DNA of 64,000 nucleotides from Candidatus Latescibacterota bacterium (GTDB lineage: Bacteria; Latescibacterota; UBA2968), in NCBI GenBank assembly GCA_965232265.1, contig CBDDPH010000002.1, positions 350,216 through 414,215 on the forward strand. The letters are read 5' to 3'. Shown piece after piece: positions 5,165-44,862 of this stretch. The translations under genes were made by a program, and so were the position numbers. The stretch's first letter is position 1. Every line of letters starts with the position of its first letter. Under the pieces are notes generated by a model. The model searched no databases and was not told the origin of the DNA. It saw only the letters and a program-made list of their open reading frames with translations.

Positions 5165-5365
5165 TTTTACACAGATAAACACAGATTAACGGCATCAGGG
5201 GCGAGGCATGCCTCGCCCCTACATGGCATTGCCGGTGGGCGAAAAATCTTTCGCCCCTACCTCTCAAAAAAGGGCGACCACAAGCCCCTGCGATCCCTTC
5301 GTGTCGTGAACTGGCCTGAGAAGCGGCCAGTTGTACCCCATTCCGTGTCCTTCGTGGATTTCGCG
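5165..5365. repeat. composite repeat cluster (two GTAG-type REPs, AACTGG hairpin, TTCGTG repeat)
   Basis: aggggcgaggcatgcctcgcccctac 5197-5222; gggcgaaaaatctttcgcccctac 5237-5260; tgaactggcc..ggccagttgtaccc 5307-5338 inside ttcgtg repeats. Confidence 0.75.
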
Positions 5366-7582
5366 TCTCACCTCTTACCGCTTTTCTTTTTTCTTTCTCT
5401 TGCCGCACACCTCTGGGCGGACGTGTCCAACGGGGGGTTTGAACAAATCACAGCATCGCAGATACCTGTAAATTGGTCTCCCTTACCCGATTCTACACGG
5501 GTCATGGTCGAACGCGAACGCGCCCACAGCGGCAAAATCTCAGTCCTCATGTTAGGTGGCCCGCGAGGCGAACCCACCGCACTGATCAGCGATCCTATTG
5601 GTATTCAGCCAGGTGCCGTTTATGTCTTAACCGGATGGGCGCGTGCCGACAGCGCAAGGGCTTTCGCACGCATCCGATGGCTGTCAGAAGATCAGACTGC
5701 GGTGGACGAAAGCAGCACAACAACAGAAGTAACAAGCGCGTCGTGGACACAATGGGCCGGAACTTTTTTAGCACCCACAAAAGCCGTATCTGCGCGTGTG
5801 CTTTGTCTCACACACGGAAAAGAAGCGGCTTTTGACAATGTGCGTCTGCACAAAATCGCACCGCGAATGCCCCTTGGCCTTCAATTAAAAGCAACGGATT
5901 TTCCCACGCAAGGCGTGCGCGTCTCAAGGGTGCACGCGACCATACAAGACAGCGTTGTCGCGCGACCTCACCATATAGAACAGGGCAGTGCGGTTTCTCA
6001 TAATGGCGCCGTGGTTATTTTTGAAGCGAGTCGCGGACAAATAACCCCCTGGGCAACAATAAGAAATGGCACAGCGACAGCCATATTGCGCGACACCGAA
6101 GAAAATGTGGGCGGCGTCTATGTGCGGGCGAGGTTGGCCCACCTCAGCCCCCGGATCTATGTCGGCGACAAAAAAGCGGTCCGATTGCGCGGTCGTCTTT
6201 TCAATGCCGAAACCGGACACCCCCTATCGGGCCGGGTAATCGTCGCCGATTCTGTGGGTACTGTTTTACAAACGGGATTTGCAGAACGCGGCTTTGTTGC
6301 CGACAGTGAATTTGCCATTGATCTGCCACCCCAAACAATCACCGTATCCGCAATGCGGGGTTTGGCGCACCTGCCGCCAGAACCACAGGTCTTGCACCTC
6401 ATACCCGGTCGTGAACACATGGTAGAATTACCCTTCAAACCCTGGGGAGATCTCCATGCGCGGGGATGGGTGGCAGGTGATTTTCTCAACAGCAATGACG
6501 CACGGGCACACGGACTGGCCTGGGCAGCCTTGCCAGTGAATGCGAATGGAAATTCCATACTGACACTACCCGGCAAATATGTTGAAACCCGCAGGGGAAA
6601 ACAGTGGGTGTTGGGCACCACGGGGCTATTTACCCCTGAAAAAGCCGGATTTGAAGTACACGCCCAGGCGCGTCTATATCGCGGAATTACTGGCCATGCA
6701 GATATTTTGGGCACATCGTTATTCGATATTCTCGCTGGCCCGGCTTTTGACGCACTCGATGTCGCGCATCCCGATATGCGAGCACTGTGGTTTGTACTGC
6801 TCAATCGGGGCTATCGCATTGCGGGCACAGCTTTTTCCGACGAACATTTTCACACCTACACACACGTGCCCGGCGACCTGACCGCCGATAAACTGATGCG
6901 CGCAATTGCCAACGGCCAAAATATGATCACCAACGGGCCTCTGATCTCGCTATCCGTCTTTGCAGCCGGCCCCGGTGACCAATTGCCCACAGGCCGCAAA
7001 AGACGGGCAACAATTCAAGCCTGGGCAGCCGCAAAACCCGATGCGTATTTGACGCGCATTGAACTCATTCGCAATGCACGGGTAATCCAGCGTTGGGACT
7101 TAAAAGAACAGCCGCGAAAATATCGGCTATCAACAGCACTCGAAGATACTGTCACCTGCTGGTATCTCGCCCGGTGCTACGGTGCAGACACATCGCGCGT
7201 GGCATTGACGAACCCAATCTATTTCCAAACAGAGGATTTCGCGCCTCCCCAACCCGTTCGGGCTATTGTGCGAGGCAAAATTGAAACGGCCGACAATTCT
7301 CCTGTGCCCCAGGCCATTATTCGAGCTGTTGATCCCACAGGCAGAACAGTCCTGGAAACAGTAGCCCGACGCGGAACATTTCAAATTTGGGTACCTGCGA
7401 CCAGCCAGATACACATAGAAGCAAAAGGCTACGAAACACTGCCGCAACGCATCTTTGACCAGCCGGATATTCAGCGCCTATTGCAAACACCTGTCAACCC
7501 GTCTGAACTGAACGCCCTGGATACGCTGACCGAACAATTACAAGCCCTTGACATGGTGTTTGTTCTCAAACGCTCACAATAA
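5354..7582 (+). CDS. secreted protein with carbohydrate-binding-like N-domain and CehA/McbA (PHP-like) metallohydrolase-like region
   Basis: signal peptide LLPLFFFLSLAAHLWA; VSNGGFE..AHSG..FDNVRL (CBM4/9-like); GWVAGD, TNGPL, IELIRN, WYLAR, ALTNPIYF. Start uncertain: the track start 5162 runs through repeats, GTG 5354 chosen. Confidence 0.6.
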   Translation: MDFASHLLPLFFFLSLAAHLWADVSNGGFEQITASQIPVNWSPLPDSTRVMVERERAHSGKISVLMLGGPRGEPTALISDPIGIQPGAVYVLTGWARADSARAFARIRWLSEDQTAVDESSTTTEVTSASWTQWAGTFLAPTKAVSARVLCLTHGKEAAFDNVRLHKIAPRMPLGLQLKATDFPTQGVRVSRVHATIQDSVVARPHHIEQGSAVSHNGAVVIFEASRGQITPWATIRNGTATAILRDTEENVGGVYVRARLAHLSPRIYVGDKKAVRLRGRLFNAETGHPLSGRVIVADSVGTVLQTGFAERGFVADSEFAIDLPPQTITVSAMRGLAHLPPEPQVLHLIPGREHMVELPFKPWGDLHARGWVAGDFLNSNDARAHGLAWAALPVNANGNSILTLPGKYVETRRGKQWVLGTTGLFTPEKAGFEVHAQARLYRGITGHADILGTSLFDILAGPAFDALDVAHPDMRALWFVLLNRGYRIAGTAFSDEHFHTYTHVPGDLTADKLMRAIANGQNMITNGPLISLSVFAAGPGDQLPTGRKRRATIQAWAAAKPDAYLTRIELIRNARVIQRWDLKEQPRKYRLSTALEDTVTCWYLARCYGADTSRVALTNPIYFQTEDFAPPQPVRAIVRGKIETADNSPVPQAIIRAVDPTGRTVLETVARRGTFQIWVPATSQIHIEAKGYETLPQRIFDQPDIQRLLQTPVNPSELNALDTLTEQLQALDMVFVLKRSQ

Positions 7583-7644
7583 TTTGACCACTGTATTATA
7601 CTGTAGAAATATGTACATTTTCATTTTTATACCAGGAAAATAAA

Positions 7645-8337
7645 ATGAATAAAATTTTGGTGGTTGAAGACGAACCTGATATTTTGGAAATGGTGCGCTA
7701 CAATCTCGATCAGGCTGGGTTAGATGTTGAAACAGCAGAAGATGCCGAGCGTGCCCTCCAGAGCGTTCAGGAGGTTCTGCCAGATTTGATCATACTGGAC
7801 CTGATGCTGCCTGGCATCGATGGGCTGGATATGTGCAGGCAACTAAAACAAGAGGCGCGAACCCGTCACATACCCATCTTGATGTTGACCGCGCGCAAAG
7901 AGGAAGTAGATCGCATTGTGGGATTGGAATTGGGAGCCGATGACTACGTCGTCAAACCCTTTTCCCCGCGCGAGCTCGTCTTGAGGGCGCAGGCGATTCT
8001 GCGGCGCAGTCAGGGCAGTTTGCAAGCAACCACGGATACCTGGTTACATCTGGGACCGATATCTATCGATAAAACCGCACACCAAGCCCTCTTAAACGGT
8101 GCCCCATTGGAATTGACGGGCACAGAATTTAAGCTGCTCATAACCTTGATCCAACGCCGCGGGCGCGTGCAAACGCGCGACGACTTACTCGACACAGTAT
8201 GGGGTTATGAATACAGTGGTTATGGGCGCACGGTCGATACGCACATCAGGCGGTTGCGCGAGAAACTCGGCGAAGCAAGCGAATGGATCGAAACCGTGCG
8301 GGGCGTGGGTTATCGCTTCCGCCGAGAGAGAGCATAG
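7645..8337 (+). CDS. phoB: OmpR-family response regulator, PhoB-like
   Basis: ILVVEDE, LDLMLPG, GADDYVVKPF, RTVDTHIRRLR, IETVRGVGY. Confidence 0.8.
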   Translation: MNKILVVEDEPDILEMVRYNLDQAGLDVETAEDAERALQSVQEVLPDLIILDLMLPGIDGLDMCRQLKQEARTRHIPILMLTARKEEVDRIVGLELGADDYVVKPFSPRELVLRAQAILRRSQGSLQATTDTWLHLGPISIDKTAHQALLNGAPLELTGTEFKLLITLIQRRGRVQTRDDLLDTVWGYEYSGYGRTVDTHIRRLREKLGEASEWIETVRGVGYRFRRERA

Positions 8338-8338
8338 C

Positions 8339-10162
8339 ATGCGTTTGCACTGGAAATGGATGCTCGCCTGTCTCTCTGTACTGCTCCTGGTACTGGCATC
8401 TGTATTTATATATCTGGATCACGCCATACGCGACTTTTGGGTTTATCATCTCGAACAGAGACTTTTGCGCGAGGTGCGTTTTGCCCGCGTGCATCTCAGC
8501 GAAGTGGCAAATACCGATGAAGTACTCGTCCCGCTCGTCAACGAAGTGGGATTGCGTTTGGGCGTGCGTGCAACGCTGATCAACGGTCAAGGCCGCGTAT
8601 TGGCCGATTCGGAAACCGACCTTTATGATCTGGGTGCTCTGGAAAATCACGCCGATCATCCAGAAATCAGCGCCGCACGTCAACAGGGGCGGGGAAGCAG
8701 CTTGCGTTATAGCAATACGCGGGATACCGAAATATTGTATGTCGCAACGACAGTACCGGAAATTGGCGATGGGCATTATGTCCTGAGATTGGCCCTGCCC
8801 CTGCGCGATATGGGGCGGATAAAACAACTGATTTTACAGGCGATATGGATCGTATCGATACTGGGATTATGCCTCGCCCTGTTATTGGCTTATGCCACCT
8901 CGCGGTATATCTCGCGCCCCATTTTGGACGCCATCTGGTTCGTCAAAAACATTGCTTCGGGAAGATTAAAACACCGCTCACTCCGCGTTGGATCCACGCG
9001 AGAATTGCGCGAACTGGGCACGGCATTAGACAACATGCGCCGGCAGGTCCAGACGCACATCGGACAAATCACACTTGAAAAATCGCGTTTAGAAGCCGTC
9101 TTGACGAGCATTACAGAAGCCATTCTGGTCACGGACCAAAGTGGTCGCATCCTGATGGGCAATCAGACCTTTGAAAAGCTATTTGGGGTGTCTGAAGCCA
9201 TGGAAGGGCGCATGCCTATTGAGCTTGTGCGCCATTGGAATGTGCAAAATGCAATTGATCAAACCCTGAAAACCGGAGAAGCGGTATTTTTAGATCTCAC
9301 CCGCTCAGACGACCGAGAACGCCATTTCGATGTGCAGATTGCACCTATTTTGCAAGACGATCATATCGCGGGTTCTGTAAGTATTTTTTACGACATCACG
9401 GAACTGCGCCGCCTGGAGCGCATTCGAAAAGATTTTGTCGCCAATGTTTCCCATGAATTGCGCACCCCGCTCACGACCATTAAAGGATGTGCCGCCACGC
9501 TGGCAGACGGTGCCTTAGGCGACCAGGAAGCCTCACAGCGATTCGTGCAAATGATCAACACCCATGCGGATCGCCTGCACAATCTGGTCGAAAATATTCT
9601 GGATCTGTCGCGTATCGAATCGGGTGCTCTGCCCCTTGAGACCGGCGTTTATACCGTACTTGAGATAGTCAATTCCGCCGTTGGACAAATACGCCCACTG
9701 GCAAAAGAGAAAACCCTTACCATCGAGATAGACATAAAAGAAAACGTGCAGGTGCAGTGCGATCGCAAGCTCATCGAACAGGCATTGCTCAATCTGCTCG
9801 ACAACGCCGTAAAATACACGCCTGAAGAAGGTAAAATCTGGATTCAGACGCGGGATTTCAAGCCTGTGGAAAATGATCGAGAAAGCCGTCGCAATAGACC
9901 TGAGGAAATTGAAAATCAGACCCGCACGCGTCGCATTGCACTTGAAGTAAAGGACACGGGTATTGGGGTACCGCTTTCAGATATGGATCGCATTTTTGAG
10001 CGATTTTATCGGGTCGATAAAGGGCGGTCGCGGGCAATGGGCGGGACGGGCCTGGGCTTGTCAATTGTTCGGCACATCATGGATGCACACGGCGAGCGGG
10101 TTTATGTCGAAAGCGAACAGGGCAAGGGATCGACATTTGGACTGACATTGCCGAGGGCATAA
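8339..10162 (+). CDS. phoR: sensor histidine kinase, PhoR-like (TM-HAMP-PAS-HisKA-HATPase)
   Basis: RKDFVANVSHELRTPLT H-box, NLLDNAVKY, DTGIG, RIFERFYRVDKGRSR..GGTGLGL; ATG 8339 directly after the phoB stop. Confidence 0.8.
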   Translation: MRLHWKWMLACLSVLLLVLASVFIYLDHAIRDFWVYHLEQRLLREVRFARVHLSEVANTDEVLVPLVNEVGLRLGVRATLINGQGRVLADSETDLYDLGALENHADHPEISAARQQGRGSSLRYSNTRDTEILYVATTVPEIGDGHYVLRLALPLRDMGRIKQLILQAIWIVSILGLCLALLLAYATSRYISRPILDAIWFVKNIASGRLKHRSLRVGSTRELRELGTALDNMRRQVQTHIGQITLEKSRLEAVLTSITEAILVTDQSGRILMGNQTFEKLFGVSEAMEGRMPIELVRHWNVQNAIDQTLKTGEAVFLDLTRSDDRERHFDVQIAPILQDDHIAGSVSIFYDITELRRLERIRKDFVANVSHELRTPLTTIKGCAATLADGALGDQEASQRFVQMINTHADRLHNLVENILDLSRIESGALPLETGVYTVLEIVNSAVGQIRPLAKEKTLTIEIDIKENVQVQCDRKLIEQALLNLLDNAVKYTPEEGKIWIQTRDFKPVENDRESRRNRPEEIENQTRTRRIALEVKDTGIGVPLSDMDRIFERFYRVDKGRSRAMGGTGLGLSIVRHIMDAHGERVYVESEQGKGSTFGLTLPRA

Positions 10163-10194
10163 AAAAAGGGTCGCGTTAAATAACGCGACCCCTT
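10161..10194 (-). terminator. intrinsic terminator between phoR and tRNA-Pro
   Basis: gggtcgcgtta-aa-taacgcgaccc hairpin next to an A7 tract (U-tract on the minus strand). Confidence 0.7.
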
Positions 10195-10202
10195 AAATCT
10201 AT

Positions 10203-10279
10203 TGGTCGGGGCGAGAGGATTTGAACCTCCGGCCTCCTGCTCCCGAAGCAGGCGCTCTACCGGGCTGAGCCACGCCCCG
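10203..10279 (-). tRNA. tRNA-Pro(CGG)
   Basis: reverse complement CGGGGCG TGGCTCAGCCCGGTAGAGC..CCTGC-TTCGGGA-GCAGG..GGTTCAAATCC..CGCCCCG ACCA; 77 nt, encoded CCA. Confidence 0.95.
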
Positions 10280-10332
10280 TTTGCTATTTGTCTAAAAAAT
10301 ACCACAATTTCATTCTTGGGCAAGAAAAAGAT

Positions 10333-10677
10333 TCACTCCGCCTGAAATGCCGCAACAGCCTCATCTACGGAATCGTGCAGATCGAAAATTTTAATCAACT
10401 GCGTCTGTACAAAAACACTGATCACATGATCGTGGGCATTGGCGAGTTTCAAATCGCCATTGGCCTGGCGCAAACGCTGCAAAAGTGCGGTCAAAACCCC
10501 AAATGCCATGCTGTTTAACCACCGCACCTGTCCCAAATCCAAAACCACTTTCATCCCATTATTCTCTTCGAGAAATTCAGTTACATAATCGGCCAACTCC
10601 GACATCTCGCGGTCCGTCACCTGACCGTCGAGCTTTATAACGCGGATATTTCCCTGCATAGTTTCTTCAAAAGCCAT
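10333..10677 (-). CDS. STAS-domain anti-sigma factor antagonist
   Basis: VVLDLGQVRWLNSMAFGVL (phosphorylatable Ser), GDLKLAN; ATG 10677 after an AGGAAGGG RBS. Confidence 0.85.
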   Translation of the reverse strand: MAFEETMQGNIRVIKLDGQVTDREMSELADYVTEFLEENNGMKVVLDLGQVRWLNSMAFGVLTALLQRLRQANGDLKLANAHDHVISVFVQTQLIKIFDLHDSVDEAVAAFQAE

Positions 10678-10690
10678 CTTGTTTCCCTTC

Positions 10691-13585
10691 CTATTTGTGA
10701 ACCAAATCTCCTTGCGCCTCGAGCGCGGCTGCAAGAGATTCCACACGCGCTCTCAAATCTGCCACAAAGCACTCAGCACCTGACCAATTTTCATCCTTTG
10801 CCAACTCTTCAATTGTCGCGGCAACCTCCCTCATATTATCAGCGTAAAACAATTCGGCATTTTCTTTTAATTCACGCGCCCCCTGGCGAAGCGTTTCTGT
10901 GTCGTCAAGAAGGCTTAACAAATCGCCCCTCGTTTGTAGAAACATCTCGGATAGCCGCACGAGAAGCACCTCATCCCCGCCAACATGTTGCAATGACGCC
11001 TCCCAGTTGAGTGCCTGCTGCCCGGCGGGCCCCGTCGCTTCTATCGCATCGTAAAGGAGGCGAGATCGAAGCGGCTTGGCTACAAATCCATCCATACCAG
11101 CCGCTATGCAAAGCTCGCGGTCGCCCTTCATCACATCGGCCGTCATCGCAACAATTCGAATATGCCCTCCCGATTCCTTCTCGCGCTTGCGAATTTCTTT
11201 GGTGGCTTCAAGCCCATCCATTTCGGGCATTTGTACATCCATCAACACCAGATCAAAGGAATCGTCTTTGTCAAGTGCTTCCAGAGCCTCCACACCATTA
11301 TTTGCCACAACGACTGTGTGACCGCGCTGGTGCAGCATATCAATGGCAACGCGCTGGTTGACCAGACCGTCTTCGGCCAATAAAATGCACAGAGATTTTT
11401 GCGTCTTCTCAGTTATAACATCATCTGTCCCCAAAGCATCTGGTGCAGATTCCTCAAATATGTCAGCAATCAAATTAAAAAGATCGGATTGCTTGATGGG
11501 TTTGGACAGGTGCCCGGCCAGCATTTCGCTGGTAGAAGCCACCTCTGGACGACCAGCAGAAGTCAACACCACCACGCGCGTGTATTTTAGCGTTGCGTCA
11601 GCGGCAATCTGCCTTGCGAGCGCGTAACCGTCCATAACGGGCATTTCCGCGTCGAGCAGAACCAGTGGATATGGACTACCCGCCCGTTGTGCGCGCAACA
11701 ACTCTTCCAATGCTATCTGACCATTCTCAGCCAGAGCGGGTTTCAAACCATGGCAGGACAACATCTCCTCAAAAATCACCCGATTGGTATTGTTATCGTC
11801 AACGACCAATACCGGCATGCCGTGCAGTGTATCGGGCAAAACATCTCGGTACGACACACCGTTGGTACGACGCGAAAAACGGGCTTCAAAAAAGAAAATA
11901 CTCCCCTTGTCCGGCTTGCTTTTCACATCGAGTTTTCCACCCATCAGCTCGACCAATTGGGCGGAAATCGTCAAACCAAGCCCCGTGCCGCCATATTGCC
12001 GTGTCATTGAACTGTCGGCCTGATCAAAAGCGCTGAATATCTGTTGTTGCACCTGTCGTGGAATACCAATACCCGTATCGCGCACCTCAAATCGCAATTT
12101 TGCGTCCTCCTCGCGCACCACTACCAGGTCAACATCGATATCCACAGCCCCATGATCTGTAAACTTGATGGCATTGCCCACCAGATTGACGACGACCTGT
12201 CTCAGGCGAATGGGATCGCCTATCAAGTCGTCGGGGACCTCTGGCGCAATCCGATAGGTCAACTCAAGCCCCTTCTCACTCGCCCGAACAGCCAGTGTTT
12301 GCAACGTATCGCCAAGCGTATCTCTCAGCGCGAACGGAATGCTTTCCAATTCGAGCTTGCCGGCTTCCACCTTGGACAGGTCGAGAATATCGTTGAGCAA
12401 CACGAGCAACGTATCTGCCGAATTATAAGCGAGATCGGCGTATTCCTTTTGCCGCGCCGTCAACTCGGTATTGCCCAGCAACTCGATCATCCCCATAATC
12501 CCGTTCATCGGCGTGCGAATCTCGTGGCTCATATTAGCCAAAAATTGGCTCTTGGCCTGATTGGCTGCTTCGGCTGCTATACGGGCATTTTCAAGCTCTT
12601 TGTTCTGCGCCTCAAGGCGCTCGAGGTCGTCTAAACGGGTAATACCCATCGAGACCTGTTCTGCAATACTCTCCAAAAACAAAACCTCGGCCTCTGAAAA
12701 AGCAGAGACCGCATCACTCATCAAAGCCATTGTGCCCCGCGCATGGGGAATATCGAGAATACACCGCACCTCAACCCCGTATCGCGCAGCGATCCCCTTG
12801 AAACCTACCTCTGTCAACCCGCCCATATTTTTTACCAGATTCTCGCGGTAAATTGTCTTTTGCTGTTGCCACATGCGATAAACATTCGGTATCTGGCGCA
12901 CCATGCGATGGATCTGCCCCGAAGGCATCACCTCGTGCGTTTCAAAAGTATGCGTTTCGGGATCGAGCAATCGATGAACGGCAATGGCGACAACGGAGAC
13001 ATCGAGCGTCAGCAACTGTTCTCTACACACGCGAACAACCACCTCGAGATGCTCTGGCCGCGTCATCTGTTGCACGGCGCGACTGACCTGTATGAGCGCG
13101 TTCTGAAAAGTCACCTGCTCGCCGAGCGCACCTTCTGCCCGCTTTTGTCCGGTAATATCGGCCACTGCACCAATCATGCGAACCGGCACTTCTTCACCCG
13201 CATCAAAAAATACTTTGGCTTTGCTGCTGACCCATCTCACCTCGCCATTGGCATGCACAATTCTATATTCGGTATCATAAGGCGCACGGCCTTCAAGGGC
13301 TTGTCTGACCTCCTTCTGGGCGCGATCGCGATCATCCGGATGAACACACGCCAACCACTCGGCCTCAGAGACCATCGTATCCCGTGGGGGAAAACTAAAA
13401 AGTTCGAAATACCGGTCTGTACACACGGCACTATCGTTTTGGATATCCCAATCAAACAGACCAATCCCACCGGCTTCAAGCGCGTGTGTTAGACGCTCCT
13501 CACTCCGCTGCAAGGCGTCTAACGCATCCCGAATCTGTTGAAATCCACCCGTAGAATCAATCGTATGTGTATTGCGTTTACCCAT
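10691..13585 (-). CDS. cytoplasmic hybrid histidine kinase (PAS-GAF-like-HisKA-HATPase-REC-REC-degenerate HPt)
   Basis: VHPDDR PAS/PAC; FLANMSHEIRTPMNG; NLVGNAIKFT; DTGIG; GGTGLGL; two receivers (LLDAEMP, LMDVQMP); HPt-like tail ARELKE. Confidence 0.9.
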   Translation of the reverse strand: MGKRNTHTIDSTGGFQQIRDALDALQRSEERLTHALEAGGIGLFDWDIQNDSAVCTDRYFELFSFPPRDTMVSEAEWLACVHPDDRDRAQKEVRQALEGRAPYDTEYRIVHANGEVRWVSSKAKVFFDAGEEVPVRMIGAVADITGQKRAEGALGEQVTFQNALIQVSRAVQQMTRPEHLEVVVRVCREQLLTLDVSVVAIAVHRLLDPETHTFETHEVMPSGQIHRMVRQIPNVYRMWQQQKTIYRENLVKNMGGLTEVGFKGIAARYGVEVRCILDIPHARGTMALMSDAVSAFSEAEVLFLESIAEQVSMGITRLDDLERLEAQNKELENARIAAEAANQAKSQFLANMSHEIRTPMNGIMGMIELLGNTELTARQKEYADLAYNSADTLLVLLNDILDLSKVEAGKLELESIPFALRDTLGDTLQTLAVRASEKGLELTYRIAPEVPDDLIGDPIRLRQVVVNLVGNAIKFTDHGAVDIDVDLVVVREEDAKLRFEVRDTGIGIPRQVQQQIFSAFDQADSSMTRQYGGTGLGLTISAQLVELMGGKLDVKSKPDKGSIFFFEARFSRRTNGVSYRDVLPDTLHGMPVLVVDDNNTNRVIFEEMLSCHGLKPALAENGQIALEELLRAQRAGSPYPLVLLDAEMPVMDGYALARQIAADATLKYTRVVVLTSAGRPEVASTSEMLAGHLSKPIKQSDLFNLIADIFEESAPDALGTDDVITEKTQKSLCILLAEDGLVNQRVAIDMLHQRGHTVVVANNGVEALEALDKDDSFDLVLMDVQMPEMDGLEATKEIRKREKESGGHIRIVAMTADVMKGDRELCIAAGMDGFVAKPLRSRLLYDAIEATGPAGQQALNWEASLQHVGGDEVLLVRLSEMFLQTRGDLLSLLDDTETLRQGARELKENAELFYADNMREVAATIEELAKDENWSGAECFVADLRARVESLAAALEAQGDLVHK

Positions 13586-13594
13586 GGTAAAATT

Positions 13595-14811: not shown

Positions 14812-14825
14812 ACCGAGCGCCAGAC

Positions 14826-15677: not shown

Positions 15678-15689
15678 CAACAAAAAGCA

Positions 15690-18854: not shown

Positions 18855-18872
18855 TTTACACCCTCTCTTTTT

Positions 18873-19008
18873 CATCTGCGTCCATCTGCGGGTGGGTTTC
18901 GAGCGGTGTACAACTGATTCAGGCCAGTTGTACCCGCCCCTACATTTCACATCAATCTGTCCCCAGTCCTTCTTTTCATCTGCGTCCATCTGCGTCCATC
19001 TGCGGATC
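18873..19008. repeat. CATCTGCG tandem repeats flanking a GTAG-type REP with an internal AACTG hairpin
   Basis: catctgcgtccatctgcgg 18873-18891; gggtgggtttcgagc[ggtgtacaactgattcaggccagttgt]acccgcccctac 18890-18943; (catctgcgtc)x2 catctgcggatc ~18977-19008. Confidence 0.75.
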
Positions 19009-19651: not shown

Positions 19652-19672
19652 ATGACCATACCGATGCGCTGA

Positions 19673-19760
19673 TAAACTGGCTTGAACCAGTTGTCCCCCT
19701 TTCCGTCTATGAACTGGCCTGAACCAGTTGTACACCGTTCCGTTGATTCGTCTATTCGTT
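19673..19760. repeat. two AACTGG-hairpin repeats plus ATTCGTCT repeat
   Basis: taaactggcttgaaccagttgtcccc 19673-19698; tgaactggcctgaaccagttgtacaccg 19710-19737; gattcgtctattcg (a related motif occurs at ~13939-13990). Confidence 0.75.
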
Positions 19761-19838
19761 TAACGCGGTTCAGATCGCGCCAGCACCTCCCCAATCATTC
19801 GCGTGCTGGTCGATGAACCCCATTCAAAGGAGTAAGAA

Positions 19839-20366: not shown

Positions 20367-20581
20367 GGCGAAAATTTTTCGCCCCTACAATCGGGCAACC
20401 ACGAGGGCGGGCGGGTTGAACTGGCCTGAACCAGTTGTACACCGCTCGAAACCCGTCCCTACAACACCAGGGTGCGATGACAAGCACGCATGCCTCGCCC
20501 CTACGAGAAATCACACTTCATCCTTTTGCGGTTTGAAACCGCAAACTACTTCTTCCTTCAAACTTCATCCTTCAAACTTCT
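20367..20581. repeat. REP cluster (several GTAG-type REPs, one with an internal AACTGG hairpin) and CTTCA heptamer tract
   Basis: ggcgaaaatttttcgcccctac 20367-20388; gggcgggt[tgaactggcctgaaccagttgtacacc]gctcgaaacccgtccctac 20409-20462; gcatgcctcgcccctac ending 20504; tttgcggtttgaaaccgcaaactac 20525-20549 within cttcatc/cttcaaa repeats. Confidence 0.75.
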
Positions 20582-23469: not shown

Positions 23470-24381
23470 TCAGAATATACTAATATGGAGGTAGCGTTTG
23501 GGATTCCGCTGGATATCTGCAATAAGACTATCCATCGACGTCAGGGTGCGATCCAGATGCTCGTACACCGCTTCGTCCTTAACCAAACGCCCGACCGTAC
23601 CGCGTCCATCTCGTATCCCTTTGGAAATATCATCGAGATTGGCAAATGTATTCTGCATGGCAACCGAAGTCGATTCCATCTGTGCCGAAATCCGCGCAAG
23701 GCGTTCCATAATCACAGTTATATTGGTCACGGCAATGGTCAAATTTTCGCGATTATCCCGCATCAGACCACTCGCATCGCCCGTCGCCATCGCCAAACTG
23801 TCCAGCATCTTATCGACCTTACCCAGATTATCGTCATTCAATAATCGGTTGAGATAGTACGTGGTCGTGTCAATACGCGAAAGAACGCTTTCCAGATGCG
23901 CGAGATTGTTATTGCTGGCTACGCCATCTACAGCGCCGCGAATTTTTTCGATCATAAGCCTGCTTTCAGACACCATCGCATCGAGATCCGAAGCAGAAGT
24001 TCCCTGTACAACAGCGCCATCTGGCAGACGCTGTTCCGACTCACCCAACTGAATCTCGATCATCTGCCCACCCAGCAGACCATCGGATTTGAGTAAAAAA
24101 CGCGAATCCACAGGCAAATCTCTCACCGCGGCAAATCCAAGTGCGACAAAAGGCAACCCATCCTCAAGGGTAATAGACAGCACCTTTCCCACCCGCACCC
24201 CACGAAATGTCACCGGATTGCCCACTTGAAGCCCCGGCACACTGTCGAACCTGACATGGATGCGATATCCACCAGCCGCACCTGCATAGCGCTCCGAAAG
24301 CCACACCGTGCCGACCACCAGAATAACGGCTGCAAAAAATACAACTGCGCCCAGAATAATTTCTTGCCGACGATTTCTCAT
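23470..24381 (-). CDS. mlaD: MCE/MlaD family protein
   Basis: N-terminal TM, GLQVGNPVTFRGVRVGKV, GLLGG, GTVGRLV..DIQRNPKRY. Confidence 0.85.
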   Translation of the reverse strand: MRNRRQEIILGAVVFFAAVILVVGTVWLSERYAGAAGGYRIHVRFDSVPGLQVGNPVTFRGVRVGKVLSITLEDGLPFVALGFAAVRDLPVDSRFLLKSDGLLGGQMIEIQLGESEQRLPDGAVVQGTSASDLDAMVSESRLMIEKIRGAVDGVASNNNLAHLESVLSRIDTTTYYLNRLLNDDNLGKVDKMLDSLAMATGDASGLMRDNRENLTIAVTNITVIMERLARISAQMESTSVAMQNTFANLDDISKGIRDGRGTVGRLVKDEAVYEHLDRTLTSMDSLIADIQRNPKRYLHISIF

Positions 24382-35011: not shown

Positions 35012-35021
35012 AAAACCCTCC

Positions 35022-37493: not shown

Positions 37494-37523
37494 GTCTATA
37501 TTTATTTTCATGTCTATATTTAT
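37488..37523. repeat. perfect 18-bp tandem duplication
   Basis: tttcatgtctatatttat x2. Confidence 0.85.
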
Positions 37524-37741: not shown

Positions 37742-37991
37742 GTAGTCCTTTAACCTCAGCCTTTAACTCTTCGGGAGTAATCTGAAAAGGCGACACATTG
37801 TAATGGCCTAATTCATTGAGAAATTCAACCCGCGAAATTCCCGCAAATTCGGCTGCCCGACCGCTGGAAATGCGCCCGAGTTCATAAAGCTTAACAGCCG
37901 CCAACATCCGAATCTCTCCAGTGAGTTCATCATCCGTCAATTCTACATCTCCGAGCGGCTGGTCGGGAAGCGAGAGCGTAATAGTTCTCAT
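37722..37991 (-). CDS. UPF0175 family antitoxin
   Basis: AAVKLYELGRISSGRAAEFAGISRVEFL. Confidence 0.85.
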   Translation of the reverse strand: MRTITLSLPDQPLGDVELTDDELTGEIRMLAAVKLYELGRISSGRAAEFAGISRVEFLNELGHYNVSPFQITPEELKAEVKGLRADLDQ

Positions 37992-38035
37992 AGATAGCTC
38001 TCCTCGTTTTATTGGTGTCATTATTTGTCCCTGCC

Positions 38036-39169: not shown

Positions 39170-39335
39170 AATCCTCCGTATTCACTTTAAGGGTGTTTCA
39201 ATACCTGTTAAACCAAAAGTACTGACACCTTTGAACACTTGTCAAGACAGAACGGGCTATTTTTATTGACGTATTGAGAAATTGGTAGTTATTTCTTAAC
39301 CTCAAAATCATATTCACGGATGAAAGGAGCGTATT

Positions 39336-40337
39336 ATGTCAAACAAAATTCGGGTAGCGGTCATTGGCACAGGACAGCGCGGACCGTCGCATGCGCGTGA
39401 GCTATTGGGATGCGATGAAGCCGAACTCGCACTCGTGTGCGACCTCGATGAAGAACGCGCCAAAAACGCGGCTGAAAATTTCAACGTAAAATACGAACTC
39501 GACCATCGGGAAGTCATCGCGCGGGACGACATTGACGCCCTGGCAATTGCGACGCACACGCGACACCACGCAGGCGTCATGCGCGATGCCGCCGCGGCAG
39601 GCAAACCATTTCTGGTCGAAAAACCATACTGCGACAGCGTTGAATCGGGCGTAGAAATCTGTGAAATAGCAGAAAAAAACAACGTCGTAGCAATGGTGGG
39701 CTATCAATCTCGCTTTACGGCTTTTGCCCAGGAAATGAAAGCACTCGCCTCACAGATCGACCTGATCCAAACCAACGTAACACTTCAACGCGGATTTTTT
39801 AACCCGCAGTATTTCTTCCCCGAACACTACAGCGGCATCCTCGACGCGCTCTCACACACCATGGACCTCGCTTTGTGGTGGACCGGCTCTTTGCCCGTAG
39901 AAGTCATGGGACACGAGCAATGCGGCCTGTTCAAACCCGACAAAGACGCCGTAGAATTTGTCAACATCACAACCCGGTGCGAAAACGGGCAAATCGTGTG
40001 TATGACGGGCAGCATGGCGGGCATCCAGATGCAGAACATCTATCAGATGGCGGGCTTGCGGGGAAATATTTCGTCGGTAGAACGCAATCGAATCCGATAC
40101 GTCACACATCTCGGATTTAACGAAGACAAAACACCGATAGATCTAAAAGCGGGAGAATGGACGGGATCGGGACAGCCGCCGACCGACATGTGGACGCACT
40201 TCGCGCAATGCGTGAAAGAAGGGCGAACAGATGTATCGCCCGGAGCGAGCCTGCGAGATGGACTCGCACAAGTAGCGGTAAGTGAAGGCGCGTACTTCTC
40301 TTCCCGCGAAGGAAAAGCCATCACAGTCTCGCTTTAG
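39336..40337 (+). CDS. Gfo/Idh/MocA oxidoreductase
   Basis: VIGTGQRG, VEKP, GYQSRF, DALSH. Confidence 0.85.
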   Translation: MSNKIRVAVIGTGQRGPSHARELLGCDEAELALVCDLDEERAKNAAENFNVKYELDHREVIARDDIDALAIATHTRHHAGVMRDAAAAGKPFLVEKPYCDSVESGVEICEIAEKNNVVAMVGYQSRFTAFAQEMKALASQIDLIQTNVTLQRGFFNPQYFFPEHYSGILDALSHTMDLALWWTGSLPVEVMGHEQCGLFKPDKDAVEFVNITTRCENGQIVCMTGSMAGIQMQNIYQMAGLRGNISSVERNRIRYVTHLGFNEDKTPIDLKAGEWTGSGQPPTDMWTHFAQCVKEGRTDVSPGASLRDGLAQVAVSEGAYFSSREGKAITVSL

Positions 40338-40352
40338 CCAGAGGAAAACAAA

Positions 40353-41136
40353 ATGAAACTCGGATGTCAGGCGAGATCTTATGGCAAAGGAATATACCCC
40401 AGCGAAGCGGACTTCCTCTCAGTTGTTCGCCAGATCGGAAACCTGTGTTTCAAGGGACTGGAAGCAAATTGGAAAAATCTGGAGCGACTATTTTCAAGAC
40501 CCCGAAGCATTCAAACGCATCCTATCCGAAACCAATCTCGAACTGATTGGCGCGCATTACGGTGCTGCACACTGGGATGAATCCTCGCGCAAACAAATCA
40601 GAACCGAAGGAAGTCAGATCGCCGACTTTGTATCCGCTGTTGGCGGACAGTACATAGTCTGCAGCGGACGGCGTCCAACACAGGGAACTGTATCAGACGA
40701 ACTGTGGGAAAAAACCGCAGAAGGCCTGAATCTGTTAGGCGAACACTGCGCGCCCAAAGGCGTCCAACTCGCCTATCACAACCACTGGTGGGAATCTGAA
40801 CAAGAGGGACTGGTCAAACTCGCATCATATACCGATCCGGTATATGTGGGATTCGCCTTTGACACCGGGCACCACATACGGGCGGGCAAAGACGCAATCG
40901 CATTGGTCAGAGAACTCTCAGACAGGCTACACATCATCCACCTCGCAGACCATTCAGAAGACGCCAAAGGCAATGCCCTTCGACCACAATTGGGCACAGG
41001 CGTATTAGACCTATCAACCTTGCGAAACGCACTACAAGGATTCACGGGCTGGCTTGTTTTAGAAGAAGAAAACAACGCCCCATCCCCAGAGGTACAGGTG
41101 GCCGAATGCATCGAAGTAATGAGGACAATGACTTAA
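40353..41136 (+). pseudogene. sugar-phosphate isomerase/epimerase (xylose isomerase-like TIM barrel) with a +1 frameshift near 40485-40488
   Basis: RBS and MKLGCQ..FKGLEANWKNLE in one frame; YFQDPEAFK..YHNH..FDTGH..IHLAD..LVLEEE in the next frame. Confidence 0.7.
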
Positions 41137-41166
41137 AATCCTCTGAATCCACGCGAAAGGAAAATT

Positions 41167-41691
41167 ATGGAATTCGTCCAAAAAGATGTGCAAATAATAT
41201 CGCACTATTTTCAAGACGACGGAGTGGTTCCAAATAGCGCATTCCCACTCATCGTCTATCAAGCTGCCCTATCACTACCCGAAGACGACCCTGCGCGGGC
41301 TTATGAGCAGGTATTTGCCGCCAATCGCTGGGCGCGTTCGTGGCGCAACGGCATTTATTCCTTTCACCACTACCACGCCACAGCGCACGAAGTACTGGGC
41401 ATAGCGCGGGGAAGTGCCAAAGTGTGCATGGGCGGTGAACAGGGCGTGCGCTTGACAATCGCACCGGGCGATGTCATGGTCATTCCCGCGGGCGTAGGAC
41501 ACAAAAATCTGGGCGCGAGTTCAGACTTACTGGTCGTAGGCGCGTATCCCGATGGACAGCAGCCGGACCTGTGTCGAGAAAGTGCCCGTGAACACAAACA
41601 GGCGCTGGAAAACATCCCCAAAGTACCGATGCCCGCTTCCGATCCGGTCTTTGGAACAAATGGTGCTGTAATGAATTTATGGAAAAAATGA
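41167..41691 (+). CDS. cupin-domain protein (YjlB-like)
   Basis: HHYHATAHEVL, PAGVGH, VVGAYP, DPVFG. Confidence 0.85.
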   Translation: MEFVQKDVQIISHYFQDDGVVPNSAFPLIVYQAALSLPEDDPARAYEQVFAANRWARSWRNGIYSFHHYHATAHEVLGIARGSAKVCMGGEQGVRLTIAPGDVMVIPAGVGHKNLGASSDLLVVGAYPDGQQPDLCRESAREHKQALENIPKVPMPASDPVFGTNGAVMNLWKK

Positions 41692-41698
41692 GGTTTTT

Positions 41699-43150
41699 AT
41701 GCAACCGACAAACATGCTCTACATCATATCCGATCAACACAATCGCAACCTGCTCGGGTGTTATGGTCACCCGATGGTACAAACCCCCAACCTGGATCGG
41801 CTATCCGAACAGGGCACGCGGTTTACCAATGCCTACACCAACTGTCCAATTTGCGTACCGGCGCGTGCATCTCTGGCCACGGGCCGCTACGTACATCAAA
41901 TTGGCAACTGGGATAATGGACATCCATACACCGGAAACGCGCCAAGCTGGCACCACCGCTTGCGCGAGCAGGGTCTTAACGCCACATCAATAGGCAAATT
42001 GCACTTTAAGGGCCAGGGCACAGATCACGGATTCACCGAAGAAATCGAACCCTTAAACGTCGTCGATGGCATAGGCGACGTACTCGGCTGCATCCGAGAA
42101 CAACCGCCCTTTCGCAACAAGCGACCGGGTATCCGGGAAGCGGGACCGGGCGACTCCACGTATTTGCAATACGACCAGCGCAACGCGGACAATGCGATAA
42201 AATGGTTACAAGAACATCGAGATGACGAAAAACCCTGGTGCCTGTTCCTGTCTTATGTGTGCCCACATCCCCCGTATATTTCGCCGCCAGACTTATATGA
42301 CATCTACGACCCGGACGAATTGCCCATGCCGCCGCAATGGCGAACCCAGGACTGGCCCGACCATCCCGCAATGGACTACTTCAGGCGATTCTTCACATTT
42401 GATCCCCAATTCCCCGAAGCCATCATACGACAACTAAACGCGGCGTACTACGGCGTATGCACATATCTGGACAGCCAAATTGGTCGGGTGCTAAACACCC
42501 TGGACGAACTGGAACTAACCGACACAACCCGCATCATCTACACAACAGACCACGGTGAACACCTGGGCGGACGCGGCATATACGGCAAATTTACCATGTA
42601 TGAAGAATCGGCCGCCGTACCCTTTCTGATGGCAGGTCCCGATGTCCCCACAGGCAAAGTCGTGGAAACACCTGTATCGCTCGTCGATAGCTACCCGACA
42701 ATTTTGGAAGCCGTGGGCGCGCAACAAACCGAAGCAGACGCAGACTTGCCCGGCGAATCGCTGTGGACCATTGCACAGGAAGAAAACCGCGACCGCACGG
42801 TATTTAGCGAATACCACGCGATAGGCGCACAAAATGGCGCGTATATGTTGCGCAACCGGCAATACAAATACATATATCACGTCAATAATCCGCCGCAACT
42901 ATTCGATACAACAGACGACCCCGAAGAGTGCCGCGACCTCGCGCAGTCGCCCGAACATCGGGAAATCATGGAAAATTTCGAACGCGAATTGCACGACCTC
43001 ATCGATCCCGAAACTGTGGATGCTCAAGCCAAAACCTCGCAACGAGAAATGATTGAATCTCTGGGCGGCAAAGAAGCCATCATCCATCGGGGCGCATTTG
43101 ACAACTCGCCCGTACCCGGTGAAGCACCAAAATTTCGACAACACGGATGA
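41699..43150 (+). CDS. sulfatase (choline-sulfatase-like)
   Basis: SDQH, CVPAR (formylglycine motif), GKLH, PHPP, DHGE. Confidence 0.9.
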   Translation: MQPTNMLYIISDQHNRNLLGCYGHPMVQTPNLDRLSEQGTRFTNAYTNCPICVPARASLATGRYVHQIGNWDNGHPYTGNAPSWHHRLREQGLNATSIGKLHFKGQGTDHGFTEEIEPLNVVDGIGDVLGCIREQPPFRNKRPGIREAGPGDSTYLQYDQRNADNAIKWLQEHRDDEKPWCLFLSYVCPHPPYISPPDLYDIYDPDELPMPPQWRTQDWPDHPAMDYFRRFFTFDPQFPEAIIRQLNAAYYGVCTYLDSQIGRVLNTLDELELTDTTRIIYTTDHGEHLGGRGIYGKFTMYEESAAVPFLMAGPDVPTGKVVETPVSLVDSYPTILEAVGAQQTEADADLPGESLWTIAQEENRDRTVFSEYHAIGAQNGAYMLRNRQYKYIYHVNNPPQLFDTTDDPEECRDLAQSPEHREIMENFERELHDLIDPETVDAQAKTSQREMIESLGGKEAIIHRGAFDNSPVPGEAPKFRQHG

Positions 43151-43260
43151 GAATTAGGAATTGGGAGTAAGGCGCACGCTTGGGGGTTGGTTAGGCTGAT
43201 CGCTTAGGGACTGGAGCTGGGTGGTCGTCTCACTTCTCACCTTATAGACCGGAGATCATC

Positions 43261-44736
43261 ATGGCCGAAACAGTCAAATTATTCCTCAATGGCGAATGGG
43301 TGGCATCCGAAGCAACGGAAACAGTACCGGTTTACAACCCATCGGACGGAACGGAAATAGCCGCAACACCCTTGTGTGGCGCATCAGAAATAGATCGCGT
43401 AGTGCAATCAGCCGCAGACGCATTTCCCGAATGGGCGAACACACCCGCCGTTGATCGCGCCCGCGTGATGTTCCGGCTCGTCGCGCTCATGGAAACCCAC
43501 TTTGAAGAACTGGCCCAACTCGTAACCCGCGAAAACGGCAAAACCATAGAAGATGCGCGAGGCGAAATTCGGCGCGGGATCGAAGTCGCAGAATTTGCCT
43601 GCGGTGCGCCCGCGCTCTTGATGGGCGACTCGCTGGAAAATATCGCACAGGGGATTGATTGCGACACCATCCGACAACCCATAGGCGTATCCGTGGGCAT
43701 CACGCCATTCAACTTTCCATCTATGGTACCCATGTGGACATTGCCCATTGCCCTCGTATGTGGCAACACCTACGTATTAAAGCCATCGGAGCGCGTGCCC
43801 TTAAGTGCGATTAAAATTGGCGAATTATTGGCCGAAGCCGGATTGCCGCCCGGCGCATTCAACATCGCACACGGCGGAAAAGACGCGGTAAATGCCCTGC
43901 TCGCCCATCCCGAAGTCAAAACCGTTTCATTCGTCGGTTCAACACCCGTGGCGCGCTATGTCTATGAAACAGCCACCCGCAATGGCAAACGCGTACAATC
44001 AGCCGGTGGCGCGAAAAATTACTTGATCGTATTGCCCGACGCCGACCTAGATTCAACCGTAGCTGCCGTCATGGGATCTGCTTATGGCTGCGCCGGAGAA
44101 CGGTGCATGGCCGGCAGTGTACTCGTCTGTGCCGAAGGTGCAGGCGACCGTTTCTTGGAACCGCTCAGTGAAACCGCACGCGAATTTCGGGTGGGACCAA
44201 CCGACCGCGATCCCAATGCGGATATGGGACCCGTCGTGACCAAAACGCACCTGCACCGCATCCATCAACATATCGAAAACGGGCTGCGAGAAGGCGCAGA
44301 ACTAATCGTGGATGGCCGCGATGTACACGTCGAAGAAACGCCGCACGGCTTCTATCTGGGCGCGACAATCTTCGACCGGGTAAAACCCCAGATGTCCATT
44401 GCGCGGGAAGAAATCTTCGGACCCGTATTATCGACCATGCACACAGATGACCTGAGCGGAGCCATTGCCCGGTGCAATGCCAGCGGATACGGCAACGCAG
44501 CCGTACTATTCACATCCAGTGGCGGAGCCGCGCGCAAATTTCGCCACGAAGTAAACGCCGGCATGGTCGGCATCAACATCGGCGTCCCCGCGCCCATGGC
44601 ATTCTTCCCATTTTCCGGGTGGAACAATTCCTTCTTCGGCGATTTACATGTACAGGGCACCGAAGGCATATCGTTCTTCACCCGACAAAAAGTAACAATC
44701 AGCCGGTGGATTGACACAAAGCGGCAATTCTTTTAG
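43261..44736 (+). CDS. mmsA: CoA-acylating methylmalonate-semialdehyde dehydrogenase
   Basis: ITPFNFP, LKPSERVP, GGAKN, GCAGERCMA, EIFGP, PAPMAFFPFSGW. Confidence 0.9.
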   Translation: MAETVKLFLNGEWVASEATETVPVYNPSDGTEIAATPLCGASEIDRVVQSAADAFPEWANTPAVDRARVMFRLVALMETHFEELAQLVTRENGKTIEDARGEIRRGIEVAEFACGAPALLMGDSLENIAQGIDCDTIRQPIGVSVGITPFNFPSMVPMWTLPIALVCGNTYVLKPSERVPLSAIKIGELLAEAGLPPGAFNIAHGGKDAVNALLAHPEVKTVSFVGSTPVARYVYETATRNGKRVQSAGGAKNYLIVLPDADLDSTVAAVMGSAYGCAGERCMAGSVLVCAEGAGDRFLEPLSETAREFRVGPTDRDPNADMGPVVTKTHLHRIHQHIENGLREGAELIVDGRDVHVEETPHGFYLGATIFDRVKPQMSIAREEIFGPVLSTMHTDDLSGAIARCNASGYGNAAVLFTSSGGAARKFRHEVNAGMVGINIGVPAPMAFFPFSGWNNSFFGDLHVQGTEGISFFTRQKVTISRWIDTKRQFF

Positions 44737-44763
44737 CATAGAGAGGCTCTTGTATCTTAAAAA

Positions 44764-44862
44764 CGGGCGACCACGGGCGGTGTACAACTGGTCACAGACC
44801 AGTTCACGGATCGCCCCTACGGTATATCCCTTCGTGTTTCTTCGTGTACCTTCGTGGATTTC
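44764..44862. repeat. GTAG-type REP with internal AACTGG hairpin, followed by TTCGTG repeats
   Basis: gggcgaccacgggc[ggtgtacaactggtcacagaccagttca]cggatcgcccctac 44765-44820; ttcgtgtttcttcgtgtaccttcgtggat 44831-44859. Confidence 0.75.

Follow-up and report, generated by a model that had tools for sequence, protein, structure and literature searches.

The stretch of DNA analysed here (the window) comprises 64,000 nucleotides (nt) of the genome of a Candidatus Latescibacterota bacterium. This genome, G000, consists of a 4.72-Mb chromosome (C2) and an 11-kb contig (C1), and the window corresponds to G000:C2:350216-414215. Intergenic spacers of the window carry six copies of a small hairpin with the arms AACTGG..CCAGTT, which are lodged among or within other repeats. 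We describe this hairpin, the genome-wide family to which it belongs, and the evidence that the family probably consists of ultra-small mobile elements.

Hairpins and host repeats in the window

An initial annotation, made from the sequence of the window alone, had placed the hairpin at six sites, and all six copies were present. The pattern AACTGG-N2-14-CCAGTT gave five exact matches to these sites in the window against 0.01 expected from 100 shuffles, and a single stem mismatch sets the hairpin of the sixth copy (18912-18929, minus strand) apart. Both orientations occur as annotated, with four copies on the plus strand (5307, 19673, 19710, 20417) and two on the minus strand (18903-18931, 44777-44806), and none of the six lies in a convincing coding region. 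An extra match to the pattern at 24006-24036, within an open reading frame (ORF) of 303 amino acids, lacks the unit ends described below and was taken as chance. The copies and the repetitive extragenic palindromes (REPs) with the GTAG tag that surround some of them are:

5307..5341, plus strand: type A copy of 35 nt, made of TGAAC, a 24-nt hairpin and the tail GTACCCCAT; within short tandem repeats of CTTCGTG
18903..18931, minus strand: short type A copy whose 18-nt hairpin has one mismatch; lodged in a GTAG REP loop
18890..18943, minus strand: host REP GTAGGGGCGGGT..AAACCCACCC, split by the copy at 18903-18931
19673..19701, plus strand: degenerate short type A copy (TAAAC.., tail GTCCCCCTT)
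19710..19738, plus strand: short type A copy, 18-nt hairpin, tail GTACACCGT; among TTCCGTC/ATTCGTCT repeats
20417..20445, plus strand: short type A copy; lodged in a GTAG REP loop
20405..20462, plus strand: host REP GGGCGGGCGGGT..TCGAAACCCGTCCCTAC, split by the copy at 20417-20445
44777..44806, minus strand: type A copy, 19-nt hairpin; in the loop of a GGGCGAYC..GGTCGCCC REP
44765..44820, minus strand: host REP GTAGGGGCGATCCG..CCGTGGTCGCCC, split by the copy at 44777-44806
5236..5262, plus strand: uninterrupted GTAG REP of another subfamily (GGGCGAAAAATCTTTCGCCCCTAC); similar ones at 2493-2518 and 20367-20388

The three split GTAG-type palindromes that had been proposed (18890-18943, 20405-20462 and 44765-44820) were confirmed, as was the location of further copies in short repeats, at 5307 within CTTCGTG and at 19673 and 19710 among TTCCGTC/ATTCGTCT repeats. 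The split REPs had been compared with uninterrupted ones at 2493, 5237 and 20367. These do exist, as members of another REP subfamily (GGGGCGAAA..TTTCGCCCCTAC), and genuinely empty counterparts of the split subfamilies were found elsewhere in G000. Folded as single-stranded DNA, the 5307 copy reached -8.0 kcal/mol (z -4.1) and the REP composites of the window about -13 to -14 kcal/mol (z -1.8 to -3.6; -13.7 kcal/mol and z -3.3 for 44765-44820), and the short 18-nt hairpins alone folded weakly (z about -1.5). The copy at 18903-18931 has AC in place of the 5' TG, by which GTTGTAC and the hairpin form a longer perfect palindrome (GTACAACTG..CAGTTGTAC); this change looks like the correction of a quasi-palindrome by template switching.

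A genome-wide family of units with conserved ends

A genome-wide motif search, as recommended in the initial annotation, showed that the hairpins of the window belong to a family present throughout G000. The simple hairpin pattern occurs 82 times on the chromosome. A profile built from 55 exact-form copies and run over G000 returned 191 matches at E values up to 10, 125 of which cover at least 26 of the 41 model positions, and the union of profile matches and related subfamilies comprises 154 copies.

The conserved unit consists of TGAAC, a variable hairpin and GTTGTAC(A/C)CCGC, and its ends are fixed to no better than one or two bases. It is 35 nt long in type A and 27-29 nt in types B and D. 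The stem always starts with AAC/GTT; inner sequence and hairpin length (16-24 nt) vary by subfamily. The conserved GG(T/G)G end described initially was confirmed as the complement of C(A/C)CC within the tail GTAC(A/C)CCGC. The unit is bigger and more varied than the hairpin of about 28 bp first noted, with lengths of 27-35 nt and at least four hairpin subfamilies. Hairpins of the form AAC-stem-GTT with a stem of at least 6 bp and followed by GTA were matched 133 times in G000, compared to 33 times in the reversed genome and 5-40 times with nine other three-base tails. The subfamilies are:

Subfamily A: AACTGGYC..GRCCAGTT, 35-nt unit, 72 copies in G000
Subfamily B: AACTGC-4 nt-GCAGTT, 27-nt unit, 28 copies in G000
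Subfamily C (AACGAG): AACGAGCC..GGCTCGTT, 5 copies in G000
Subfamily D: TGAACTGGC-4 nt-GCCAGTT, 29 nt, seen in the related genomes G018, G010 and G016

The stem covaries. At position 7 of the type A stem, 58 hairpins had either T:A (32) or C:G (26), and this position was never unpaired. The 18-nt hairpins of the window look like deletion derivatives of the longer form, and at one orthologous site (L062) the 24-nt form of a relative corresponds to a form in G000 that is 6 nt shorter. The family is also nested, with type C copies located in the loop of type A copies.

Two further structures were observed around the unit. A small hairpin, CCCCACATTACCCACTTGTGGGG, lies within the 5' stem of three type A copies (G000:C2 653252, 1526175 and 3515716) and may represent a second nested micro-element family. 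In a 'long form' with about 20 copies (for example G000:C2 22875, 1133372, 1329311, 2474979, 3867660, 3869268 and 3877382) CATGCTCGATTTACTCGCCTTCATACCCCGCTC takes the place of the usual tail behind the hairpin, and this extra segment is a target for further insertions in both orientations.

Empty and filled host repeats

The placement of the hairpin inside other repeats, the central proposal of the initial annotation, was not random. For 75 of 92 copies, a 14-mer of the 25-nt flank occurred at least three times in G000, compared to 28.5% of about 20,000 random intergenic sites. With a stricter flank test (a perfect stem of at least 6 or a strong tandem repeat) the values were 23 of 92 copies and 4.1%. 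Three host repeats were found in G000 both with and without the unit:

Host c (AACGCTCRA..CTCRCG): 16 empty (4-nt centre), 10 filled
GGGTT..AACCC REP: about 43 empty (1-4-nt loop), about 30 filled, twelve of them by type B
GGGCGAYC..GGTCGCCC REP: 16 empty, 5 filled

The GGGTT subfamily includes the window host at 18890-18943 and the GGGCGAYC subfamily the one at 44765-44820. Filled hosts are longer by a net 35 nt with type A and by 27 nt with type B, without any target duplication. At least 12 unrelated host contexts hold the unit with the same ends. Host and insert are not always inherited as a single fixed unit, since different subfamilies occupy the same host position, as the following counts show (from a rough table of 121 matches, about 8 of which are artefacts):

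GGGT REP, same position: type A 4, short type A 2, type B 18
Host c, same position: type A 9, type B 2
'Long-form' segment, same position: type A 1, type B 5
CTTCGTG repeats, same position: type A 3, short type A 1, type B 1

The junction was compared over 66 distinct flank pairs. Before the unit, position -1 is A in 62% and never C, and position -2 is G or A in 79%; behind it, T is found at +1 in 77%, and C at +2 in 76% and at +3 in 65%. The junction is thus biased to R-A ahead of the unit and T-C behind it, with no fixed tetranucleotide. Filled sites have TC where the empty sites have TT in five independent contexts (host c, the GGGTT REP, a repeat of about 200 nt described below, the heptamers of G020 and G014, and locus L033), and therefore the transferred piece probably overlaps one or two target T's.

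Some host repeats resemble miniature inverted-repeat transposable elements (MITEs). A conserved long flank was considered as the end of an insertion sequence and rejected: the nine copies concerned share just 72-171 nt, a MITE-like repeat. These nine lie in a composite of the form ..GTTACTYGG[unit]..GCGTTGTAGGCTTCGCCTGTGC.. (G000:C2 80248, 425818, 461332, 1067450, 1171107, 1385765, 2187098, 3564033 and 3769653). Another structured MITE-like repeat, of about 200 nt, contains ..GCGCTGTGCAAGCCCCTCGGCG.., a T-rich stem-loop and GTCGCCGAAGGCATGAAAAG and has no Rfam match. All seven of its copies in G000 are empty (G000:C2 near 783295, 1230295, 1606369, 4125455, 4408809, 1048518 and 617735). In 30 sampled loci (L158-L187) of G010, G016 and G018 it is the commonest type B host and carries the hairpin at one or two fixed points.

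Distribution and comparison with relatives

The family is restricted to one genus. The exact type A pattern was found in 19 of 20 other genomes of the genus and was missing from all 20 genomes compared that represent other genera of the order; in a species-representative collection, exact patterns occurred only in metagenome-assembled genomes of Latescibacterota among the matches listed (at least 80). The more general pattern TGAAC-N10-26-GTTGTACMCCGC was present in G000 and in all 20 other genomes of the genus, with 7-238 copies each. Outside the genus it was found in 0 of 10 genomes from other genera of the family, in 0 of 22 from the sister family and in 2 of 76 from another family (1-2 matches each), the reversed control giving 0-1 matches, and in 147 other genomes of the phylum the hairpin family was not above chance. 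Copy numbers were highest in G018, G010 and G016, which are nearly without type A yet rich in types B and D; many of their copies are hosted by a single MITE-like element about 200 nt long or by TTTGTGCC repeats, sometimes as tandem copies.

Presence and absence were compared at orthologous sites by seeking in G000 the sites of 108 copies from relatives, each with 150-nt flanks. Flanks were collinear in G000 for 50 of these. Seven sites showed a clean gap of 33-35 nt with the host kept (L007, L011, L016, L033, L043, L048 and L078), 23 lacked the whole block of host and insert, 17 had other sequence, two were filled in both genomes and one was ambiguous. The reverse case occurs at G000:C2:1787366, where a type C unit lies within the loop of a type A unit and the corresponding loci of relatives (L039, L108) have type A alone. 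At locus L100 an orthologous REP carries type A in the relative and type B on the opposite strand in G000. The CACGAAG repeats of the 5130-5402 spacer contain a type B unit in G020 and are without it in G014.

The copies of the window gave a similar picture. Of 15 relatives' loci, 12 have a spacer of 16-18 nt in place of 19653-19763, where G000 has two hairpins, G017 has one, and G005 has short repeats only. Of the two G000 copies, the one at 19673 is shared with G017 alone among these 15 loci and the one at 19710 is present in G000 only. Together with the seven clean gaps, this spacer provides the empty-site alleles in relatives on which the initial proposal of mobility depended. None of the 17 relatives' loci with both anchors has the 5307 copy in the orthologous spacer, the 18903-18931 copy was never found in the orthologous spacer of 17 relatives' loci (which hold other repeats or none), and the spacer of the 44777 copy has neither REP nor hairpin in 10 relatives' loci. 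The spacers 18857-19008, 5130-5402 and 44737-44903 differ in almost every species, and the G000 copies are missing from these sites in all of the relatives compared.

This turnover is not confined to the hairpins. Spacers between genes that are 86-95% identical are rebuilt in nearly every species, with lengths of 16-254 nt at the same site, from tandem repeats of heptamers and octamers (CATCTGCGT, CTTCGTG, TTAATTC, ATTCGTCT, CACGTCT), REPs and small hairpins, as seen in the three window spacers just named and at loci L121-L139, L297-L317 and L319-L339.

Assembled contigs of four runs (X18-X21; two samples of one study) were also compared with the window. A contig in all four runs has 59 other letters between 5130 and 5402, the one long piece (X20 record 17) shares about 90-91% identity with the window, and one X19 contig skips 19653-19761. 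These differing contigs are most simply alleles of co-occurring relatives, and they therefore repeat the cross-species result.

These comparisons also bear on whether the hairpin moves alone. It might instead have entered a few repeats once and spread since then as part of a composite, with insert-only differences arising by gene conversion or template switching between paralogues. Hairpin variants track host class, block differences exceed clean ones by 23 to 7, and one MITE-like element drives the type B counts of G010, G016 and G018, all as such passive spread would predict. It would also account for the block of about 125 nt (REP, hairpin and heptamers) that contains the 44777 copy, which has a paralogue at G000:C2:174756-174883 and is also found in G017. 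Moreover, every host seen is a repeat, and a homologous donor would thus always have been available. However, as many non-homologous entries would be needed as there are unrelated host contexts with the same unit ends, i.e. at least 12. In several hosts, two or three subfamilies occur at one and the same base, host arms of just 6-15 nt are short for homologous exchange, and copies lie within other copies. We consider purely passive spread unlikely.

Position relative to genes

Positions relative to genes were taken from a crude, start-extended ORF set (3,910 ORFs covering 90% of G000, which leaves about 10% intergenic). Among 125 profile copies, 104 were wholly intergenic, 2 partly so and 19 in ORFs. 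Twelve in-ORF copies were listed with their ORF; eleven of these lie at most 161 nt from the ORF end, which fits an over-extension of start codons, and the twelfth is a weak match of 10 bits. The hairpin copies are essentially all intergenic. Only seven neighbouring pairs at distances of up to 150 nt (6 direct, 1 inverted) were found among the 154 copies, which are singlets.

Intergenic placement of this strictness, as well as the invariant ends and the compensatory stem changes across the genus, might also be expected of a functional motif kept by selection, such as a binding site for a protein or an RNA hairpin with a role in transcript stability or termination. Such a motif is difficult to reconcile with an orientation to the flanking genes that is random (36 same, 37 opposite), with conservation between species at 2 of 50 comparable sites, and with the fact that no window copy is kept across the genus. 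There is also no T run after the hairpin and no Rfam match. This explanation appears very improbable to us.

An Rfam search identified two tRNAs only in the window and nothing in six relatives' loci. Insertion into structural RNA genes was not seen in the two genes compared by eye, those for RNase P RNA (372 nt) and 23S rRNA, within whose coordinates none of the listed family copies lies. The 23S rRNA match (G000:C2:303150-306180) extends over 3,031 nt for a model of 2,925 positions, and the gene may carry an insertion of about 100 nt.

Search for a moving enzyme

The initial annotation had suggested that the hairpin might be moved by a REP-associated tyrosine transposase (RAYT) or another HUH-type enzyme. 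More specifically, the unit could be a subclass of REPs moved by a RAYT or IS200-type HUH tyrosine transposase that G000 recently lost. REP-like size and anatomy, insertion into loops, extragenic position and the lack of target duplications all fit this proposal, and on its other strand the unit shows a short head (..GTAC) beside the palindrome, resembling GTAG and its palindrome. REP families that outlived their RAYT have been described (PMC3733652). RAYT-like genes, with the motifs YDYS..YFVT, MPNHIHG and WQRSFYDH, are present in 9 of the 21 genomes of the genus, and in a sole case, G011, a REP carrying a type A copy lies within about 25 nt downstream of such a gene.

G000 itself, however, has no RAYT-like gene, and tblastn with three RAYT-like proteins gave no E value better than 0.43 against it. 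The only Pfam Y1_Tnp match in G000 is a broken fragment of 88 amino acids that spans model positions 49-113 and, as aligned by eye, has another residue in place of the catalytic tyrosine. Y1 matches occur in 13 of the 21 genomes of the genus, 8 of them full-length, but neither these nor the RAYT-like genes are related in their presence to copy number, and five genomes with 14-208 copies have neither gene type. The initial annotation had advised looking for a RAYT gene flanked by the same hairpin; in G014 and G019 the RAYT-like genes are flanked by ordinary GTAG REPs instead. None of six Y1 loci examined is flanked by the unit, and the ends there are unrelated to it. The unit further lacks a GTAG or CGTC tag, shows no strand bias and occurs as singlets. 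We therefore regard a lost HUH transposase as an improbable agent, and the enzyme is not a recognisable Y1 or RAYT transposase in G000.

Several observations accompanied this search. The Y1 fragment lies at locus L109 (G000:C2:3582559-3585747) and adjoins an ORF with a GIY-YIG-like motif (by eye) and ORF fragments resembling DDE-type integrases; the locus looks like a decayed patch of mobile elements. G000 is rich in ordinary GTAG REPs (GGGGCGAAA..TTTCGCCCCTAC, GGGGCGAGGCATGCCTCGCCCCTAC) though it has no RAYT-like gene, and those of the window lie at 2493-2518, 5196-5223, 5236-5262 and 20367-20388. In G014 and G019 the GTAG REPs stand around the RAYT-like gene in the manner of a REPtron.

Other candidates for an agent were rejected. 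G000 genes bracketed by two copies, as an autonomous element would be, encode housekeeping functions (response regulator, glycosyltransferase, cytidylate kinase, BacA, oxidoreductase and others). Pairs of copies about 2.2 kb apart in G010 have only a MITE of 280-390 nt in common, and three G014 regions with close copies contained no autonomous candidate. A link to integrons through the AAC..GTT stem base was dismissed as no IntI was found, the best TIGR02249 match reaching 88 bits for a cut-off of 265. A phage source was judged to be chance similarity: of 98 matches in viral contigs, just 2 had a stem of at least 5 bp. Contig C1 (11,007 nt; GC content 48%, compared to 52%) encodes two tandem, near-identical ORFs of about 640 amino acids (L188, 3167-5086 and 5254-7188) with a weak RVT_1 match (about 30 bits). 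This putative reverse transcriptase was not found in 40 related genomes and is thus not family-wide; C1 may therefore be strain-specific or mis-binned.

Comparison with known systems

The initial annotation had not recognised the hairpin as a described family. This holds for the literature searched, where no description of the family was found in listings and abstracts, but the kind of element has precedents in REPs inside palindromes and in the cyanobacterial repeat SDR5 inside HIP1. REPs and the cyanobacterial small dispersed repeats are the nearest known elements. The family differs from these by its tag, by a single hairpin whose ends are fixed and whose interior varies, by self-nesting, by the lack of a link to RAYTs, and by its occurrence in an uncultured phylum.

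The small dispersed repeats (SDRs) of heterocyst-forming cyanobacteria, reportedly described by Elhai et al. in 2008 (Genome Res 18:1484), are said to be 21-27 nt long, associated with heptamer tandem repeats, nested, and without an identified enzyme. The Latescibacterota family differs in its phylum and in an apparently unrelated sequence, and it combines fixed ends with a variable, covarying hairpin in 27-35 nt. As in SDRs, defined as modules of less than 40 nt, the G000 family is placed precisely inside other repeats, and SDR5 is reported to be inserted precisely within the HIP1 palindrome (PMC4390886).

REPINs with their RAYTs are the best-understood small mobile hairpins (PMC3116915), and REPs lodged in other palindromes have been reported from Anabaena variabilis, Thermomicrobium roseum and Halothiobacillus neapolitanus (PMC3733652). 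The unit shares with REPs and REPINs the extragenic position, hairpins of 20-40 nt, a short conserved tag by the stem, a high copy number and variability among relatives. In contrast to them it has no GTAG or CGTC but a 9-nt 3' tail, GTAC(A/C)CCGC, and a 5' TGAAC, the GTAG belonging to the host REPs. Its copies are singlets rather than inverted doublets, and no RAYT is linked to it; ordinary GTAG REPs of the same genomes serve as its hosts.

Elements of the IS200/IS605 group and their miniature derivatives with hairpin ends likewise combine a lack of target duplication, dependence on hairpins and a sequence-biased insertion point. The unit differs from them in having one hairpin rather than two subterminal ones and no lagging-strand bias; G000 encodes no TnpA apart from the Y1 fragment, and the ends of the Y1 elements of the genus are unrelated. 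Insertion sequences that target REP loops, IS1397 among them, were reportedly described by Tobes and Pareja in 2006, a paper to which PMC3116915 and PMC3733652 refer. They resemble the unit in their preference for the loop of a palindromic repeat, but they are full-length, protein-coding and accompanied by target duplications, whereas the unit is non-coding and 27-35 nt long. Integron attC sites are recognised as a folded single strand; only AAC..GTT at the stem base is fixed and the rest is conserved as structure. The hairpin unit has the same fixed stem base, but G000 has no integron integrase and no cassette arrays, and the unit is far shorter and dispersed in both orientations.

Probable mobility of the hairpin family

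A non-autonomous micro-element that lodges in other repeats, as proposed initially, is supported by our results, and the checks named in the initial annotation as possible refutations all turned out in favour of it. Clean gaps at orthologous sites, empty and filled hosts, the exchange of subfamilies at one position and nesting together indicate that this micro-element is mobile, with a preference for loops of palindromes and for short tandem repeats. The family therefore probably represents non-autonomous, ultra-small mobile DNA elements of one Latescibacterota genus that are moved in trans and target loops and repeats. Lost HUH transposase, passive spread and selected motif each explain the evidence in part and fail on the points listed above.

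Most likely, the unit would be transferred as a folded single strand by an enzyme acting in trans, which would read the fixed ends and the hairpin. It would be joined into transiently single-stranded DNA such as extruded hairpin loops and slipped repeats. The unit sits, without target duplication, at a T-rich point, usually RA|T(T/C), and such target points are mostly the apical loop of a palindromic repeat, the boundary of a tandem-repeat unit or the loop of another family member. A host repeat filled in this way would then also spread as a composite block.

Several results weigh against mobility of this kind. No enzyme was identified for moving the hairpin unit, and G004, G007, G010, G016 and G017, with 30, 14, 208, 106 and 29 copies, have neither Y1 nor RAYT-like matches. 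The orientation to replication is balanced (53 leading, 55 lagging, p 0.92, in a rough test with origin and terminus taken from cumulative GC skew and with unequal replichores), whereas an IS608-type single-strand mechanism predicts a bias. The junction is not base-exact, with a gain of 34 nt without the C at L016, and the intergenic counts rest on crude gene calls. Whether a unit was gained or precisely lost can be told only at sites that are empty in many relatives; outside one spacer, insertion is the direction we infer. Within-population insertion polymorphism was not shown by the contigs, which alone cannot reveal it. Finally, hairpin variants correlate with host class, the whole block of host and insert is absent in G000 at 23 of the 50 comparable sites, and most type B copies of G010, G016 and G018 lie in one MITE-like element. 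Much of the copy number therefore stems from amplification of composites rather than from separate insertions.

We tentatively consider a bolder possibility, which we think less likely to hold than mobility in trans as such. Units of 27-35 nt could form a self-contained mobile class whose mover belongs to an enzyme family not yet tied to transposition, so that neither Y1 nor RAYT would be required. This enzyme might recognise the two ends and any hairpin between them and join the unit at a T-T step with a T-to-C change, in the same kind of process that would also move the cyanobacterial SDRs.

How units move that are too short for a double-stranded circle or for two transposase binding sites is an open question and, to our knowledge, has been one since REPs and cyanobacterial SDRs were described. 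The family provides clean material for addressing it, with sharp ends, covarying hairpins, nesting, and filled and empty sites that can be compared base for base, and some genomes of the genus hold hundreds of copies but have no recognisable HUH transposase. If the bolder possibility holds, the 21 genomes of the genus, mostly closed and with 7 to 238 copies each, would for the first time offer data from which the agent could be found by association. The results further indicate that the intergenic spacers of these uncultured bacteria are rebuilt quickly by layered small repeats, which matters for genome assembly, for strain typing and for the reading of regulatory regions.

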